DNA of 32,268 bases from a virus (IMGVR_UViG_3300030330_000812:1-32268), one strand, 5' to 3'. Positions 4,869 through 27,524 are shown, counted from the first letter of the stretch. The notes: generated by a model from the sequence alone, not told the origin. Made by a program: numbers and translations.

Positions 4869-5996
4869 TTAAGCAACATCATTAATCATACAGTGGTATG
4901 AAGGAGGACCGAAGTCGTATCCCATTTCCATGTAGATTGCTTTTGCTACTCTTGCGTGGTCATCTTGGTCAATGTCACGTACGAACACAGTTCCAAATCC
5001 TGGGATATTGGTAAATACTGGTTGTACGAATGCAAAGTCAACAATAAATGCTTTGTTGGCTGGCATTATGTTAGGGTCAATGACCATCATTCCAATTGAA
5101 CCAAATGGTGTTACAACTGTATCAATGTCTATACCAGCAACATTTCTATCACGTGGTAAGACAGCAGCAGTTAATGCTCCTGAAATAGCTCCATCAACTG
5201 TTAGTTCTTTGTTAAGGTCTAACAATTGTTGTGGACTAACTAAAAGTACAGGATTTTGCATAGGTGCAGAAGCATCATAAAGCCTCTTTAAAGCACCAGC
5301 AATTGTATCATAATGTAATTTTTGGTCAGTTCCAGAACCATCACCTGATGTATCGTTATAGTAAATGTTACCATTGATACCACCAGCTGCAGCTGAGTTG
5401 TTTGCATTAGCATTAAGAGCTAAGTATTCTGCAAGACCACGCATTTCTCTAGTTCCTGAACCAGGAGTAGTATTTGCACCGTCTGCGAATGTTCCGTTAA
5501 ATGCGAACCATTCTACTTCTCTTGCTACTTTTTCCATTGCTAATGCCATTTGCTCTGCAAATTCATCAACAATAGGATTACCATCACTAAAAGCTAGTTT
5601 ATCACCAGCTGTAGTTGTTCCATCACCATCAGATGAGTTTGCAATATTTGCAGACAAATCAAATGGATTTTGATTTCCATATGACGCCATAGCTGTGTAA
5701 GTCATCTTGACACCTTTGTGAAATACCTGCGTAGTTCCTGTAAATGCAACTCTGTCTCTACCTAAATATTCAGTAGGTTGTGCACCTTCTTGACCTTTTG
5801 TAGGCTCAGAAGAAACAGTTGCGTTATCAGCAGCTTGGATTTGGAAAAAAGTAGAGTTAATTACTTTACCTCCATTTAATCCACCTGTTGCAGATAAGAA
5901 AGGTGTTCTTTGACCACCAACACGGAATAGCTCCCCAGAAAAGTTATTAATATTCTGGGCATAAATTGAGTTATTGGTAAGCGAAATTGCTCCCAT
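4869..5996 (-). CDS. Major capsid protein, SU10/DUF5309-like, HK97 fold (375 aa)
   Basis: TPFLS, TQVFHKGV, REVEWFAFNG, REMRGL and TPFG motifs resemble this MCP family. Strong GGAGG SD. Follows the scaffold-like gene. Confidence 0.88.
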   Translation of the reverse strand: MGAISLTNNSIYAQNINNFSGELFRVGGQRTPFLSATGGLNGGKVINSTFFQIQAADNATVSSEPTKGQEGAQPTEYLGRDRVAFTGTTQVFHKGVKMTYTAMASYGNQNPFDLSANIANSSDGDGTTTAGDKLAFSDGNPIVDEFAEQMALAMEKVAREVEWFAFNGTFADGANTTPGSGTREMRGLAEYLALNANANNSAAAGGINGNIYYNDTSGDGSGTDQKLHYDTIAGALKRLYDASAPMQNPVLLVSPQQLLDLNKELTVDGAISGALTAAVLPRDRNVAGIDIDTVVTPFGSIGMMVIDPNIMPANKAFIVDFAFVQPVFTNIPGFGTVFVRDIDQDDHARVAKAIYMEMGYDFGPPSYHCMINDVA

Positions 5997-6029: not shown

Positions 6030-6497
6030 TTACTTTTTTTCTTCTTGGTCGAGTAATGATAACTTTGCTCTGATACTTGCTTTTGGGTCTCCGCTTGCAA
6101 CTATCTTTTGCAGTTGGTCCATTACATCGGTTGGCACTTCTGATTGTGAATTTGCATCAAGTGCAGCTACTCTAGCTCTAGCATCATCTTGAATTACAGG
6201 TTCTTGTTCAGGTTGTGGTGTATCCTCAACAACTCCTTTTGGCTCAAAACCATACTCATCTTTAGCAAACTTAGCGATAGACTCTTTTTCAATTGGTCCA
6301 TCATACACTTGTTTCAACGCCTTACCGAAACCTTTTTGAACATCAAGACCGACTTCCTCAAAAACTTGATTAAGTTCTTTCTCTTGATAAGAAGCAAGTT
6401 TAGCTTCAAGCTCTTTAACTTCTTTATCTTTACGTTCGATAGTTTCTCTCATTTGTTTTGCACCTGAAGATTCAGTTGCATCAAATTCATTTTCCAT
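6030..6497 (-). CDS. Capsid scaffolding protein (155 aa)
   Basis: Acidic, N-terminal coiled coil, immediately upstream of the MCP, GGAGG SD. Confidence 0.75.
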   Translation of the reverse strand: MENEFDATESSGAKQMRETIERKDKEVKELEAKLASYQEKELNQVFEEVGLDVQKGFGKALKQVYDGPIEKESIAKFAKDEYGFEPKGVVEDTPQPEQEPVIQDDARARVAALDANSQSEVPTDVMDQLQKIVASGDPKASIRAKLSLLDQEEKK

Positions 6498-21311: not shown

Positions 21312-21370
21312 TGACTTTATATATAAGTATGTTCTTTATCGGAGAACATACTTATATCTATGAAAGTCAT
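21311..21370. repeat. Hairpin family member 2 (perfect 15-bp stem, loop TTATCGG, plus outer stem)
   Basis: ATATAAGTATGTTCT (21321-35)/AGAACATACTTATAT (21343-57), with outer ATGACTTT/AAAGTCAT. Confidence 0.9.
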
Positions 21371-21408
21371 AGATATATTAGCTATATAGAAAGGAAATGT
21401 GATTACTT

Positions 21409-21702: not shown

Positions 21703-21725
21703 TTATTAATTAGTATTATAATTTA

Positions 21726-21762
21726 TGTATATACTGTCGTTTTTCGGACGACAGTATATACA
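21726..21762. repeat. Hairpin family member 3 (perfect 15-bp stem, loop TTTTCGG)
   Basis: TGTATATACTGTCGT-TTTTCGG-ACGACAGTATATACA. Confidence 0.9.
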
Positions 21763-21779
21763 ATACGAAAGGATAAACT

Positions 21780-22132: not shown

Positions 22133-22292
22133 TTTATCAGTAAATGAAGCTGATGGTATTGTTCTGATAGCTGAATTAGAAAAACGTTTTTCTTTCTATC
22201 CAGTAATCGTAACAAACGAAGATGGCGAACAAGAAATAAAAGCCATAATACCTTTAGTTAAAACTGTAATACAAACACCAGAGGAGGAATAA
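22125..22292 (+). CDS. Small hypothetical protein (55 aa, MSDLSVNEADGIVLIAELEKRF...); not in the ORF track
   Basis: AGGTG SD. Overlaps both neighbours. Confidence 0.7.
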   Translation: MSDLSVNEADGIVLIAELEKRFSFYPVIVTNEDGEQEIKAIIPLVKTVIQTPEEE

Positions 22293-22833: not shown

Positions 22834-23064
22834 AATTTGCTACCTACAGCTAGCTTGTATAGACCATATGCTACAAATGTAGTGTCTGTAGGTAGCTTGT
22901 AGTACATAGGTTAAACTTGTGTATTACAAGCTACGCAAGTAGCAATTCATATACAACCGCCCTGTTGTATACGTACTAAGTAAAGAAGTAAGAGAGGTAG
23001 AGTTTTGAAATCTTTCACAATAATGCCTACCTTTCTTTACTTCTTTACGCAAAGTAAAGAAAGG
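22834..23064 (+). promoter_or_regulatory. Highly structured leader of the AAA/VWA operon, with alternative SD-sequestering helices
   Basis: Five or more stems, with G-U wobbles favouring plus-strand RNA. 23030-23042 can pair with either 22980-23000 or the SD region 23052-23064. Confidence 0.65.
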
Positions 23065-23070
23065 AATCAT

Positions 23071-23547: not shown

Positions 23548-23564
23548 TACAGAAAGGAGCTAAT

Positions 23565-24293
23565 ATGTCAACAAATTGTTGGGATTTAGTAGAATCTGTG
23601 TTAGGGCAATCTCGTAGAATACTGTTGTACGGACCGCCTGGCACAGGCAAAACATACGCTGCAGTTAAAACTAATACGCCTACTGCGTTTAGTAAATCAG
23701 CAGGAAAAGAAATAGATAATATCTATCAAATCACTATGACAGAAGATACTGCTAGTGCAAATTTAGAAGGTTTTTACAGACCTAGTAGCACTGGTATGTT
23801 TGAATGGCATGATGGTATTGCAATACAGTCATGGAAAAATGGTGGTCGTTTGGTTATCAATGAGATAGACCATGCTTCACCAGACGCTATGACATTCTTA
23901 CATGCAATACTAGATGACCAGGATATTGCTATGCTAACACTGAATAATGACAAGAAAGAGACTGTAAAACCTAAAGATGGTTTTCAAGTAGTTGCTACTA
24001 CAAACAGTCCACCTGAATCATTACCACTAGCATTGAAAGACAGATTTCCTGTCAAGATACATGTTGATACGATACATCCAAAAGCCATGGAAGGTTTTCC
24101 AGAAAAATGGTGGCAAACAATCAATGATACTTCTCTAGTAGAAGATGCTGAGGAACGTATATCTATCAGAGCATGGCGTGAGTTCTTTGATTTACAAGAG
24201 AAAGGCTTCAGCGAAGAAGAAGCTGGCAAGCTTATATTTGCTGATAAAGCTGAAGAACTTGTAGATGCAATCACACTTGCAGCCAGTGAGTAA
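23565..24293 (+). CDS. MoxR/CobS/dynein-related (AAA_5) AAA+ ATPase (242 aa)
   Basis: Walker A GPPGTGKT, Walker B variant LVINEID, WHDG, sensor-1 VATTN, Arg finger ALKDRF. Confidence 0.9.
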   Translation: MSTNCWDLVESVLGQSRRILLYGPPGTGKTYAAVKTNTPTAFSKSAGKEIDNIYQITMTEDTASANLEGFYRPSSTGMFEWHDGIAIQSWKNGGRLVINEIDHASPDAMTFLHAILDDQDIAMLTLNNDKKETVKPKDGFQVVATTNSPPESLPLALKDRFPVKIHVDTIHPKAMEGFPEKWWQTINDTSLVEDAEERISIRAWREFFDLQEKGFSEEEAGKLIFADKAEELVDAITLAASE

Positions 24294-25710
24294 GGCATAT
24301 CCATACCCAGAAGTAGTTACAGGTGAGGCATGGACTGTACATGGTACACCAGATAACAAGCTAAATGGTACTACAGACAATCTAAACAAGGTAATGACTG
24401 TACCATTGAATCGTGAATGCGAAAACTGTGGTATTAATCATGCTAGACAAATACGTAGACATGAGCTAGGTCATGCTAAATGGTCACCTAAAACTATGGG
24501 TAAACTTAAACCAGGTGTACGTCCAGAGGCAATACATTTGCTAGAGGAGGTACGTATTAATAAATTACTATTTGAAGCTGGATTAGGTACAACTGATTGG
24601 ATGGTATGTGAAGAACTTGTTCGTGCTAGAACTAGACAACTAATTGAAAAAGGTAGTATTGCTGAATTGATTATGTATGGTTTGGCAGCTTATTCTTTAT
24701 CACTTAATCCAGACCAAAACAAAAGTTATTATAATTCAGTACCAGGTCGTGAATACAAAGTATTTACAGATGCAATGGCAGATGCAATGAATGAAACAGA
24801 ATTTACTACATTGCGTAGAGCAGATATTAAATATGCTCGAAGTGTTGTAGTTGCATATGTAACTAGACTTGTAGAAGGATATTATAGATTTGGTAATATT
24901 TCGTTCAGACGAGTACAAAAACTTGCTGAACCATTATCAGATATTCTAAATATGTTTCTTGATAGACCAGATGAACAAGAAATATTTGAATCAGATGATA
25001 TTGATGGCGAAGGTGAATCAGAAAATCAAGATGGTGAATCAGTAGAAGAAGGTGGAATAGGTGATGGTGACCTAGAAAAACGTATGCGTAGAGCATTAGC
25101 TGAAAGAATGACATACAGCACTACTACTGAAATGGGTTATTGGGGTGATATGACTATAGTAAGACCACCATTGCCAGTTAATCTAACAGCAAGACTTAAA
25201 GCTGGTAGAGCTTACAGACCTGCTGATTTTGGTTACAATCCTAAATATATCAACAGATTTTGTATTGACAAAAAGATATTCAAACAAAAACAAACAGTAC
25301 TAGGCGGTACTATTTTGATTGATGCATCTGGTTCAATGTCATTTGATGGTAAAGATATACTTGATATATTGCAGCTTTTACCTGCAGCAACTATTGCAAT
25401 GTATAATGGCTATGGAAATTCAGGTTGTTTACGTATTATTGCAAAAGCTGGACATAGGGTACATGAAGACTATCTAGATTCACATACAGGTTCAGGTAAT
25501 GTAGTAGATGGTCCAGCCTTAGATTGGTTATCAACAATGCCACCTAGAAGAATATGGGTATCTGACATGCATGTATTTGGTGGTAGTGGTTCTACAAATG
25601 GTTACAATTTACTCAAATATTGTTATGACATGGTTACTAAACACAGAATTATTAACCTTAAAAACATAGAAGAAGTTAAGGAACATGCAATAAAATTAAA
25701 TATGATATAG
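24286..25710 (+). CDS. HExxH metallopeptidase-like plus VWA domain protein (CobT/DUF2201-like architecture)
   Basis: RHELGH plus downstream LEEVRIN, an acidic linker, MIDAS ILIDASGS and WVSD. Start is GTG 24286 or ATG 24265. Confidence 0.85.
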   Translation: MSKAYPYPEVVTGEAWTVHGTPDNKLNGTTDNLNKVMTVPLNRECENCGINHARQIRRHELGHAKWSPKTMGKLKPGVRPEAIHLLEEVRINKLLFEAGLGTTDWMVCEELVRARTRQLIEKGSIAELIMYGLAAYSLSLNPDQNKSYYNSVPGREYKVFTDAMADAMNETEFTTLRRADIKYARSVVVAYVTRLVEGYYRFGNISFRRVQKLAEPLSDILNMFLDRPDEQEIFESDDIDGEGESENQDGESVEEGGIGDGDLEKRMRRALAERMTYSTTTEMGYWGDMTIVRPPLPVNLTARLKAGRAYRPADFGYNPKYINRFCIDKKIFKQKQTVLGGTILIDASGSMSFDGKDILDILQLLPAATIAMYNGYGNSGCLRIIAKAGHRVHEDYLDSHTGSGNVVDGPALDWLSTMPPRRIWVSDMHVFGGSGSTNGYNLLKYCYDMVTKHRIINLKNIEEVKEHAIKLNMI

Positions 25711-25711
25711 T
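25703..25711 (+). promoter_or_regulatory. Extended -10 element for the candidate sRNA
   Basis: TGaTATAGT. The expected start, about 7 nt downstream, coincides with the first base of a stem at 25718. Confidence 0.45.
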
Positions 25712-25717
25712 AAGGAA

Positions 25718-25935
25718 GTGATATTGTATGCAAATACAACAAAGTTTCCTTTCCTTTGGATATCGCAAGAAGTAGTTTAGGTAGAATAGAGTGCAAAGAG
25801 AGTTTGCAACAAGGTATTTTATTCATCATGTCAACAGTGACCTATAGTGAACACTACCTAAACTATCATCATTCATAGCTACTACAGCTCCCGCCTATCG
25901 TGTCTTCGCTCCCTAGAACCTAGTCGCTGTGACAC
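25718..25935 (+). ncRNA. Candidate multi-domain sRNA with an anti-SD loop
   Basis: Three-way junction 25718-25766 with a GCAA tetraloop and loop UUUCCUUUC. A 12-bp stem 25773-84/25854-65 encloses small hairpins. GTGTC/GACAC forms a third domain. Confidence 0.55.
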
Positions 25936-25973
25936 TCTACGGCTCAAGCTTACGTTGCTATTCATTTAAATCA

Positions 25974-26001
25974 TTGACATATATAAAAATGAATATAAAA
26001 T
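25974..26001 (+). promoter_or_regulatory. Sigma70-type promoter, probably producing a leaderless mRNA
   Basis: TTGACA-16 nt-TAAAAT, with ATG at 26009 only 7 nt downstream and no SD. Confidence 0.7.
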
Positions 26002-26008
26002 GAAAAGT

Positions 26009-26251
26009 ATGAAAGATGTAGAAAGCTTATTGAAAGAAGCAGAAAACGGAAAAAAATCTGCTACTTTTGATAGAATCACAGAAGAAGCTATGCCTTTCTG
26101 GCAGGGATGTATCGACCGCGTTAAATCTGGTCACAAATTAAAACCATATGTAGTTCATAGGTTATTACGTGAGCAATATGATATAAAAATAAGTGAATCA
26201 GCAATACGCAAATATTTTACGGACTTGATAGAAACGCATGGCAAAAAATAG
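26009..26251 (+). CDS. Small helical, probably HTH-like protein (80 aa)
   Basis: VHRLLREQYDIKISESAIRKY resembles an HTH. Paired with the metallophosphoesterase gene. Confidence 0.65.
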   Translation: MKDVESLLKEAENGKKSATFDRITEEAMPFWQGCIDRVKSGHKLKPYVVHRLLREQYDIKISESAIRKYFTDLIETHGKK

Positions 26252-27302
26252 TAAAGAAGTAGATAAGCTTATTGCAGAAGCTGAATCTATCATAATACAA
26301 GAACTAAAAGCAGATAATCTTAGATTGCTTAAACAAGTAGATAAGCTTAAAAATAAAAAAGCTGATTTAATTGAAGCAATGTTTGATGCAGTCAGAATGA
26401 ATTTAGCTACATGGGCTAAACCTAAAATACCTATTCCTACTTTAAGTAAAAAAAATAAAAACGAAGAAGTAGCAGTAGCAATATTATCTGACATACAATT
26501 AGCTAAAGTAACACCTGATTATAACAGTGATGTAGCGGAAGAACGTGTCGTAGCATATGCACATAAGATAGTGGAACTTACTAATCTGCAACGTAATGCA
26601 CACCCAGTAAACAAGTGTGCTGTATTGGTTGCAGGTGATATAGTAGAAGGAGAGCTTATATTTCCTGGTCAATCACATTTGATTGATGCTAGTTTATACA
26701 AACAAGTAACAATTGATGGACCAAGGATATTAACACAGTTTTTTGACATATTATTGGCTAATTTTAAAGAAGTAGAAGTTACATGGGTAATTGGTAATCA
26801 TGGTTCACTTGGTGGAAGAGCACGTAAAGACTACCATCCAGATAGCAATAGTGACAGAATGCTAGGTAAAATTATGCAAATGGTGTATGAAAAAGATAAA
26901 AGAATATCATTTCATGTACCAGACAGTACGACAGAAGACCATTGGTATGCTATTGCAAACCTTGGTAAAGGCTGCAAATTCTTCGTATGGCATGGTGATA
27001 ACGTTAGAGGACATTCGGGATTCCCATGGTATGGCTTTGGTAAGAAGCTGTTAGGATGGAAAGCATTAGCATCAAGAGAGTTAATGCCTGATTTTGACTA
27101 TGCTATAGCTGGACACTTCCATACACCTACAACAATGTACGTAAATGACGTACGTTTATGGGTAAATGGCAGCACAGAAAGCTATAACAGTTATGCAATG
27201 GAACAGTTAGCAAGCATGGGTAGACCATGTCAATGGCTATTATTCTGTAAACCAGGGCATGGTGTAACTGCTGAATACCTTGTAAAGCTAGATAAAGTGT
27301 AG
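26238..27302 (+). CDS. Calcineurin-like metallophosphoesterase/nuclease with N-terminal coiled coil (354 aa)
   Basis: Motifs SDIQ, GDIVEG, GNHG, WHGD and GHFH. Confidence 0.88.
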   Translation: MAKNSKEVDKLIAEAESIIIQELKADNLRLLKQVDKLKNKKADLIEAMFDAVRMNLATWAKPKIPIPTLSKKNKNEEVAVAILSDIQLAKVTPDYNSDVAEERVVAYAHKIVELTNLQRNAHPVNKCAVLVAGDIVEGELIFPGQSHLIDASLYKQVTIDGPRILTQFFDILLANFKEVEVTWVIGNHGSLGGRARKDYHPDSNSDRMLGKIMQMVYEKDKRISFHVPDSTTEDHWYAIANLGKGCKFFVWHGDNVRGHSGFPWYGFGKKLLGWKALASRELMPDFDYAIAGHFHTPTTMYVNDVRLWVNGSTESYNSYAMEQLASMGRPCQWLLFCKPGHGVTAEYLVKLDKV

Positions 27303-27304
27303 GT

Positions 27305-27320
27305 ATACTATATATAGTAT
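27305..27320. promoter_or_regulatory. Perfect 16-bp palindrome (NrdR-box-like) overlapping a -10 element and start codon
   Basis: ATACTATATATAGTAT. TACTAT at 27306-11 lies 7 nt before ATG 27319. Confidence 0.55.
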
Positions 27321-27506: not shown

Positions 27507-27524
27507 TTATTGAAAGGAAGTTAT

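Follow-up and report, generated by a model that had tools for sequence, protein, structure and literature searches.

Known anti-SD small RNAs (sRNAs) are mostly cellular, and they hit chosen targets. Two such groups, 6C of actinobacteria (PMC6486639) and cuckoo/RSs0680/ar14 (PMC4615179), carry a fixed, anti-SD-like pyrimidine motif in hairpin loops on variable stems, as does the element described below. The c4 RNA of phages P1 and P7 (PMC12197685) is likewise a phage RNA with loop-held sequences, and it blocks a phage RBS. In the icaR 3'-UTR, with its UCCCCUG motif (PMC3868564), and in OppZ/CarZ (PMC7398697), a transcription unit ends in an anti-RBS sequence that complements the unit's own RBS, and the same arrangement is seen here. 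The T4 RegB endoribonuclease (PMC9409239) is a functional analogy, as it shuts off early phage mRNAs via an SD motif, and in cluster K mycobacteriophages (PMC3203893) some of the genes bear start-associated sequences, an RBS signature peculiar to these phages for which binding by an RNA or a protein has been proposed.

The stretch of DNA that we analyzed (the window) is a 32,268-base virus record with a GC content of 33%, and the reads containing it are marine; the phages that share the element described here are uncultured. Its minus strand carries the structural genes (terminase, SU10-type capsid, and a holin-like gene), and its plus strand carries small nonstructural genes that we presume to be early; the label "early" and the ORF and gene calls come from our own heuristics. 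A preliminary description, made from the window alone, proposed that positions 25703 to 25935 encode an sRNA whose loop complements the phage's own early SD sequences. In sequence comparison, the fold and the -10 box are conserved, the loop is invariant and complementary to the early SDs, and SD use is split by strand; we lean slightly toward regarding the element as a candidate anti-SD RNA that damps translation of the early arm.

Gene setting and architecture of the RNA

The locus has the following features.

4869-5996: capsid gene, with GGAGG before its start
6030-6497: gene preceding the capsid gene, with GGAGG before its start; phrog_7813, of unknown function
23565-24293, plus strand: AAA_5 ATPase, first gene of the pair preceding the RNA
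24265-25710, plus strand: 481-aa protein, second gene of that pair, VWA-like by a DxSxS-type motif
25703-25711, plus strand: extended -10, TG-A-TATAGT (TG at 25703-4, TATAGT at 25706-11), overlapping the upstream gene's stop
25712-25717, plus strand: AAGGAA, a purine-rich spacer that is predicted to mask the loop of read-through RNA
25718-25766, plus strand: domain 1, a three-way junction of P1 (GUGAUAU 25718-24/AUAUCGC 25760-66), P2 (25725-38, GCAA tetraloop), and P3 (25740-58; CAAAG 25740-44/CUUUG 25754-58, enclosing loop 25745-53)
25745-25753, plus strand: candidate anti-SD loop UUUCCUUUC, core CCUUUC
25773-25865, plus strand: domain 2, a three-way junction closed by P4 (25773-84/25854-65, perfect 12-bp), with the inner order GAAUAGAG, P5 (25792-808; 5-bp stem, RGAGARY loop), AC, P6 (25812-15/25840-43; a variable stem), and UGAACAC (UUGAACAC in the motif)
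25871-25945, no strand: GC-rich hairpin region 3' of the RNA, variable in sequence among homologues
25974-26011, plus strand: separate promoter TTGACA-16-TAAAAT and leaderless-like start of the small ORF/metallophosphoesterase pair
from 26009, plus strand: small ORF, paired with the metallophosphoesterase
26238-27302, plus strand: metallophosphoesterase
from 27525, plus strand: single-strand annealing protein gene

The -10 box, the AAGGAA spacer, P1, the GCAA hairpin, and the CAAAG/loop/CUUUG hairpin were all found in the sequence where the preliminary description had placed them, except that its UUGUAU/AUACAA stem shares U25724 with the closing helix. Both genes that it had named as scaffold and capsid have GGAGG, but the scaffold identity of the phrog_7813 gene is unsupported. 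The 481-aa protein, which had no Pfam match, is presumably VWA-like, a call that we base on a DxSxS-type motif. The proposal that the gene at 26009 is leaderless held up: the best -10 (by best score) lay exactly 7 nt before the ATG in 71 of the 77 homologous regions. This leaderless-like start (25996-26011) strictly keeps its 7-nt spacer; the ATG at 26000 chosen by the ORF finder is probably wrong. In the window sequence, the gene at 27319 has TACTAT 7 nt before its ATG. Elsewhere on the early arm, two long near-perfect inverted repeats (21316-21363 and 21714-21760) lie between small genes.

Our guess is that the host is an actinobacterium, on the basis of the two best annotated nuclease matches (phages of Streptomyces and Actinomycetia), a weak r1t-type holin match, and the leaderless-like genes. 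The whiB gene was absent from all five complete relatives, in which no tRNAs were found either. The sole GTDB match was a probably mis-binned contig from a MAG that bears the name Gammaproteobacteria and in which no 16S was found.

Searches with the flanking proteins yielded 133 loci. In 121 of them, 77 distinct, the intergenic region was complete, and in the other 12 one flank was missing. CCTTTC occurred 10 to 120 nt after the stop codon in all 77 distinct syntenic intergenic regions, with TCCTTTC in 69 and CTCCTTTC in 14. When loci were chosen by domain 2 alone, the CCUUUC core lay upstream in 112 of 115 distinct matches; the other three were from unrelated phages. The stems of domain 1, which include conserved G-U pairs, vary across homologues while the loop stays fixed. 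When 16 selected members of equal length were aligned with plain MAFFT, 93.9% of the domain 1 cells were paired (32 to 45% for slid partners) and 15 of the 18 pairs were compensatory; a model-fitted alignment of 61 distinct rows gave 96.8% and 17 of 18. In an alignment-free test on 38 representatives below 90% identity, own arms paired far better than foreign arms for P1, P3, and P4, and two control pairs showed no own-arm advantage. The genomes are related, so p-values overstate their independence. Covariation around an invariant loop, named as a check in the preliminary description, was present among the homologues.

By this comparison, positions 25718 to 25865 are a conserved two-domain structured RNA that represents a new family. 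The conserved unit stops at ~25865, giving roughly 150 bases, and the sequence beyond 25870 differs among homologues; the extent first proposed holds to that point, and its tail (25870-25935) is not conserved. No family in Rfam 15 (including c4, 6C, cuckoo/ar14, RsaE, riboswitches, and self-cleaving ribozymes) matched at the gathering threshold: the window gave five sub-threshold eukaryotic matches, 16 loci gave two sub-threshold matches, and 20 loci gave none at gathering. A blastn search against INPHARED returned 7 short chance matches only. Scanning IMG/VR with the domain 1 pattern returned 94 loci, of which 24 reached a model E value of ≤0.001, all in the same lineage context; the remaining loci look like chance. 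Two uncatalogued RNA families were obtained, the domain 1 element and domain 2.

The GC-rich region at 25871-25945 (fold z-score, -1.65) probably lies outside the RNA, to judge from its sequence. CGAAG/CTTCG occurs there and in the matching region of 74 homologues at 4.6 per kb, compared with 0.6 genome-wide. We guess that the region perhaps forms single-stranded DNA hairpins of an origin.

RNAfold of 25718-25870 recovered both proposed domains, with the three-way junction and the loop open (z-score, -2.87). A 241-nt stretch from 25700 folded no better than shuffles (z-score, -0.97), with AAGGAA masking the loop. This masking in read-through transcripts had been anticipated in the preliminary description; the predicted unpaired probability of the window's loop is 0.77 for RNA from 25719 and 0.21 for read-through RNA. 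For promoter-started RNA, the mean loop unpaired probability was 0.91, reaching ≥0.9 in 27 of the 38 representatives. Real upstream sequence masked the loop more than shuffles did (0.59 versus 0.76), with sequences that are related, not independent. No loop partner covarying inside the RNA from +1 was found, nor was a reading frame conserved in the element among the 38 representatives. A small-peptide or leader ORF at 25728-25775 was rejected: the 15-codon ORF at 25728 is unique to the window, 12 of the 38 representatives have no ATG at that position, and the remaining homologues give unrelated peptides.

Domain 2 is, on the same comparative evidence, an independent, uncatalogued motif present in many unrelated phages. 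Its perfect 12-bp closing stem was correctly described at the outset, but the domain is more than this stem. Among 45 clade members, 100% of cells were paired and 11 of 14 pairs were compensatory; for the window and 42 copies from other phages, the values were 93.9% and 12 of 13, and P4, which the search pattern did not require, covaries in those copies. A relaxed domain 2 pattern found 121 loci in part of IMG/VR (~320 stretches estimated). The 53 distinct copies without domain 1, one of which (L353) is a truncated clade member, include tandem copies in L208 and L361; stand-alone copies are in L135, L208, and L253-L373. An ATG-led ORF lay within 30 nt downstream in 25 of the 53 lone copies, a count with no null computed, and the genes that follow include those for a T7-like RNA polymerase, a DNA polymerase, an excisionase-like protein, and terminase. 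Domain 1 occurs alone in L131-L133, L427, and L469, and since these are distant relatives, domain 2 appears to be an add-on module.

We take both short conserved strands of domain 2 to resemble T-loops. Likenesses to 16S h45, 23S pieces, group I P7, and the hairpin or twister core had no Rfam support and were rejected, and a match of UUGAACAC to a lariat-capping ribozyme sequence in a paper was a chance 8-mer. No Rfam ribozyme matched domain 2, for which a ribozyme role is conceivable. We would guess that it shields the RNA's 3' end or sets where that end lies; a role as a 3'-end stabilizer at this locus is guessed because no terminator follows in the window. A minus-strand TTGACA in domain 2 was rejected as a promoter: it has no constant distance to a -10, and copies in other phages do not have it.

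Promoter and transcript forms

A TAnnnT hexamer was found 35 to 45 nt before the loop in all 38 representatives, in eight versions that differ at the middle three places, with a TGn extension in 27 and a purine at the 7-nt-spacer position in 35. Because the search picked the best match within 26 nt, the evidence for a -10 box is its fixed distance, not its presence; the -10-to-loop distance is fixed wherever the upstream stop codon falls. With the 7-nt spacer calibrated on the 26009 gene, the predicted +1 is 25719, or 25718 if a purine is needed. In two loci with domain 1 alone (L427 and L469), P1 starts just after TACAAT/TATAAT plus 7 nt. In sequence, the promoter resembles a usual host -10 and does not look like one for late genes.

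One metatranscriptome contig (X6) spans 25719-25869, with domain 2 unbroken. We regard it as a hint only, because it is of read length and depth 2, another piece of the X6 run has the identical length, and two of seven RNA runs touched the element (contig gaps in the other five are uninformative). The X2 piece (25627-25783) crosses the promoter and therefore represents read-through or DNA. Among 13 metagenome contig ends within 300 nt, there was no pile-up at +1, and the metagenome contigs at the locus look like DNA assemblies. No intrinsic terminator was found after the RNA in the window.

A further helix, P0, joins the spacer to sequence 3' of domain 2; it forms a duplex of ≤-5 kcal/mol in 27 of the 38 representatives, where it covaries, but the window's clade does not have it (the window's own sequence gives -0.1). 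Since P0 uses bases upstream of +1, the read-through form is probably under selection as well, and the AAA/VWA-like mRNA likely carries a second form of the RNA at its 3' end.

Predicted targets and the sister clades

GAAAGGA occurs six times on the plus strand of the window and once on the minus strand (the loop itself), and five of the six plus-strand sites precede starts. Duplex energies with the loop are in kcal/mol.

21389-21397, plus strand: GAAAGGAAA before 21409, predicted target, 9/9 complementary, -10.0
21767-21773, plus strand: GAAAGGA before 21780, predicted target, -8.5
23059-23065, plus strand: GAAAGGA before 23071, predicted target, -9.3
23552-23558, plus strand: GAAAGGA before the AAA ATPase gene (23565), predicted cis or trans target, -8.9
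27512-27520, plus strand: GAAAGGAAG before the single-strand annealing protein gene (27525), predicted target, -9.5

The exact complementarity to 21389-97 and the GAAAGGA sequences before 21780, 23071, 23565, and 27525 agree with the preliminary description. The GAAAGGA of the 23071 gene is buried in a 13-bp cis hairpin (23030-23064; z-score, -3.75). Duplexes at the five GAAAGGA sites (-8.5 to -10.0 kcal/mol) compare with -3.4 to -6.8 at six structural-strand starts and -6.2 to -8.3 at five other plus-strand starts; early genes at 22292, 28058, and 29985 pair with the loop nearly as well without GAAAGGA. The predicted pairing is short and A/U-rich, with three G-C pairs.

In the window and five complete relatives (six genomes, with our own ORF calls), GAAAGG preceded 37 of 141 genes on the RNA strand versus 1 of 201 on the opposite (structural) strand. 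GGAGG-type sequences only were found before 14 of 141 and 50 of 201 genes, respectively. The AAA-gene RBS contains GAAAGG in 22 of 33 cases in the window's clade and lacks it in 11. Within the clade, loop-versus-SD covariation beyond the shared core was not significant (p = 0.087, 56 groups). The base before GAAAGG is mostly A, which fits the 16S U rather than the loop's C, and one homologue's loop (G002, ACCUCCUUUC) would also pair with its own late GGAGG(U) sites. The 16S tail constrains both the loop and the SD, so the two should be complementary even if they never pair. The GAAAGG split may also predate the RNA, since it is no stronger than in the sister clade, which lacks the RNA (37/141 versus 41/191, p = 0.36). 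Streptomyces phage Dagobah, a single and imperfect control (a distant high-GC phage), gave no model match and no GAAAGG split (2/22 versus 2/67).

What sustains the anti-SD reading of the preliminary description is the promoter, the open invariant loop, the covarying stems, the GAAAGGA complementarity, the near absence of GAAAGG from structural-strand starts, the leaderless-like gene downstream, and the masking predicted for read-through transcripts. It is weakened by the lack of loop/SD covariation, the late GGAGG pairing of the G002 loop, the host-type -10, and the three genes that pair without GAAAGGA.

Seventy sister-clade loci have a 60%-identical nuclease and keep the gene order; domain 1 matched none of the 51 loci searched. 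In most of them (L484-L549), the VWA-like stop is followed by a plain CUCUC-loop hairpin with no evident promoter and then by an intrinsic terminator. GAGAG was found in the AAA-gene RBS in 10 of 19 sister-clade cases (four of the 19 starts being mis-picked) versus 0 of 33 in the window's clade, and the CUCUC hairpin tracks the sister-clade AAA RBS (within-clade permutation p = 0.037). Sister-clade early and late genes differ in both motifs: GAGAG precedes 36/191 early versus 1/169 late genes, and GAAAGG precedes 41/191 versus 5/169. Right after the holin-like gene, 27 of the 36 sister loci covering the holin end have a late-strand hairpin with UCCUUUCU in its loop, which is invariant in 10 of 10 aligned:

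L484:5255-5311, minus strand, and L495:11927-11988, minus strand: late-strand UCCUUUCU hairpin (plus 25 more sister-clade loci)

The nine loci without it are a subclade with little GAAAGG use (4/45 versus 1/39, three loci). Read without these late-strand hairpins, the GAAAGG split of the sister clade would suggest that such a split arises independently of an RNA. A low-sensitivity detector found no such hairpin on the late strand of the six genomes with domain 1. In L526, L528, L530-L532, and L550, what follows the VWA-like stop is another kind of three-way junction, in which GCAA or GCGA caps two hairpins and a pyrimidine loop is lacking. Some fold is present at this spot in all three clades. 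The sister-clade pattern fits pairing between the loop and the early RBS and rests on two or three clade-level events; the change of loop and RBS between clades is one event, and homology of the hairpins is putative.

Proposed mechanism, rival readings, and known systems

In the reading toward which we lean, host RNA polymerase would start at 25718-19, and a stable, compact RNA of ~150 nt would build up. With UCCUUUC predicted to be exposed in the open loop of domain 1, the RNA would pair in trans, over 7 to 9 bp, with the GAAAGGA sites of nonstructural mRNAs, competing with the 16S tail. The mRNAs covered would include the operon preceding the RNA. Translation of early mRNAs would be damped, GGAGG-led and leaderless messages would largely escape, and ribosomes would be freed for the structural genes. 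The mark of trans-acting anti-SD sRNAs, a single-stranded motif conserved on variable stems, is present here by computation. A wider proposal, which is conceivable and which we think doubtful, is that the host anti-SD is split in two, with early genes using its 3' half (AGAAAGGA) and structural genes using the CCUCC core. A stable phage RNA copying the 3' half only would then be a timer that shuts the whole early class, as an RNA counterpart of T4 RegB. Sister clades would achieve this with other RNAs, including one carried by the late transcript, and domain 2 would be a new, widespread class of functional RNA that was bolted on.

Of the alternatives, feedback in cis deserves weighing although we find it unlikely: the AAA/VWA-like mRNA would carry the element as its 3' tail, and this tail, intact or cut out, would pair only with the RBS of the same transcript, as in icaR/OppZ, and the -10 would be secondary. 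The element comes right after stop codon 25710 and, like such 3'-UTR autoregulators, combines the 3' end of a unit with the complement of that unit's RBS, which has GAAAGG in 22 of 33 cases. P0 covaries in 27 of 38 representatives and uses bases upstream of the predicted +1, the X2 contig crosses the promoter, and the sister hairpin, with no evident promoter, tracks its AAA RBS (p = 0.037). However, the -10 box keeps its distance regardless of the stop codon position, and P0 is missing from the window's clade, where read-through RNA is predicted to mask the loop (0.21). Moreover, GAAAGG is missing from 11 of 33 AAA RBSs and is found on many early genes of other transcripts. The sister clade also bears on whether the loop is a decoy that mimics the 16S 3' tail and soaks up, or is cut by, a host protein reading that tail. 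Such a protein could be a toxin RNase that cleaves the anti-SD, or else a ribosomal or processing factor, and the decoy would spare the host's ribosomes for use by the phage. The sister clade's CUCUC loop is not a 16S copy, yet tracks that clade's RBSs. In the window's clade, 63 of the 77 loops lack the CCUCC core and fit the phage GAAAGGAA consensus instead, and no host, hence no host toxin, was identified. What a decoy would explain are the homologue loops that extend to CUCCUUUC (14/77) and ACCUCCUUUCU (L077 and L078), which match anti-SD sequences in Table 1 of PMC10783764. Some mycobacterial toxins cut the 16S anti-SD, with MazF-mt3 cutting U^CCUU (PMC5408214, PMC12620021), and a protein could well bind a rigid junction in which G-U pairs are conserved. 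We consider a decoy quite unlikely.

The loop has no gene-specific extension and could pair with any GAAAGGA-type SD, and AAAGGAGG/GAAAGGAGG are class-level SD consensuses of Actinomycetota and others (Table 1 of PMC10783764). Host mRNAs with such SDs could thus be the main targets, with phage early mRNAs hit in passing, but the clade-specific GAGAG tracking points to phage targets; we judge this reading very unlikely. The least probable reading, to which we give little credence, is that the folds merely stabilize or end the AAA/VWA-like transcript; domain 2 might then block nucleases or be an unknown ribozyme, and the pyrimidine loop would have a tertiary role. That all three clades have some fold here, including the twin-GCAA junction without a pyrimidine loop, and that domain 2 stands alone between genes of unrelated phages would agree with it, whereas the loop has no covarying partner inside the RNA from +1, the RNA has a dedicated -10 box, and the match to the early SD class is seen in two clades.

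If the anti-SD reading is true, a phage RNA that reads a whole RBS class would provide simple, RNA-only timing of the lytic cycle, with the structural genes written in another RBS class. Neither this RNA nor any phage RNA directed at a class of SDs turned up in our literature search, in which subscription literature was thinly covered. The motif words were absent from four supplements of Fremin 2023 (PMC10690425), among whose 10,000 candidates either domain may be.

Membership in the closest families was rejected. The cuckoo/RSs0680/ar14 RNAs have two to four adjacent hairpins, each with CCUCCUCCC; here there is one loop, and CCUCCUCCC was found in 0 of 25 loop contexts. The 6C sRNA has two or more loops with long C-runs, and the longest C-run at the loop here is 3. 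The element differs from both in being phage encoded and in presenting UCCUUUC once, in a loop of a three-way junction, where those RNAs have C-runs or CCUCCUCCC on two to four hairpins, and its loop matches the 3' half of the anti-SD. G-C-rich pairing has been invoked for the chaperone-free action of 6C (PMC6486639), whereas the pairing predicted here is A/U-rich. The c4 RNA has one specific target (ant mRNA) and a role in immunity; the loop of the element fits a whole SD class, and there was no Rfam c4 match. Unlike icaR and OppZ/CarZ, the element has a conserved internal -10 box that predicts a separate transcript, and it has many potential targets. The start-associated sequences are a different, 13-bp motif, GGGATAGGAGCCC, for which the available portion of the report (PMC3203893) names no partner RNA. 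Finally, RegB is a protein that cuts GGAG, whereas the element is an RNA predicted to cover GAAAGGA.
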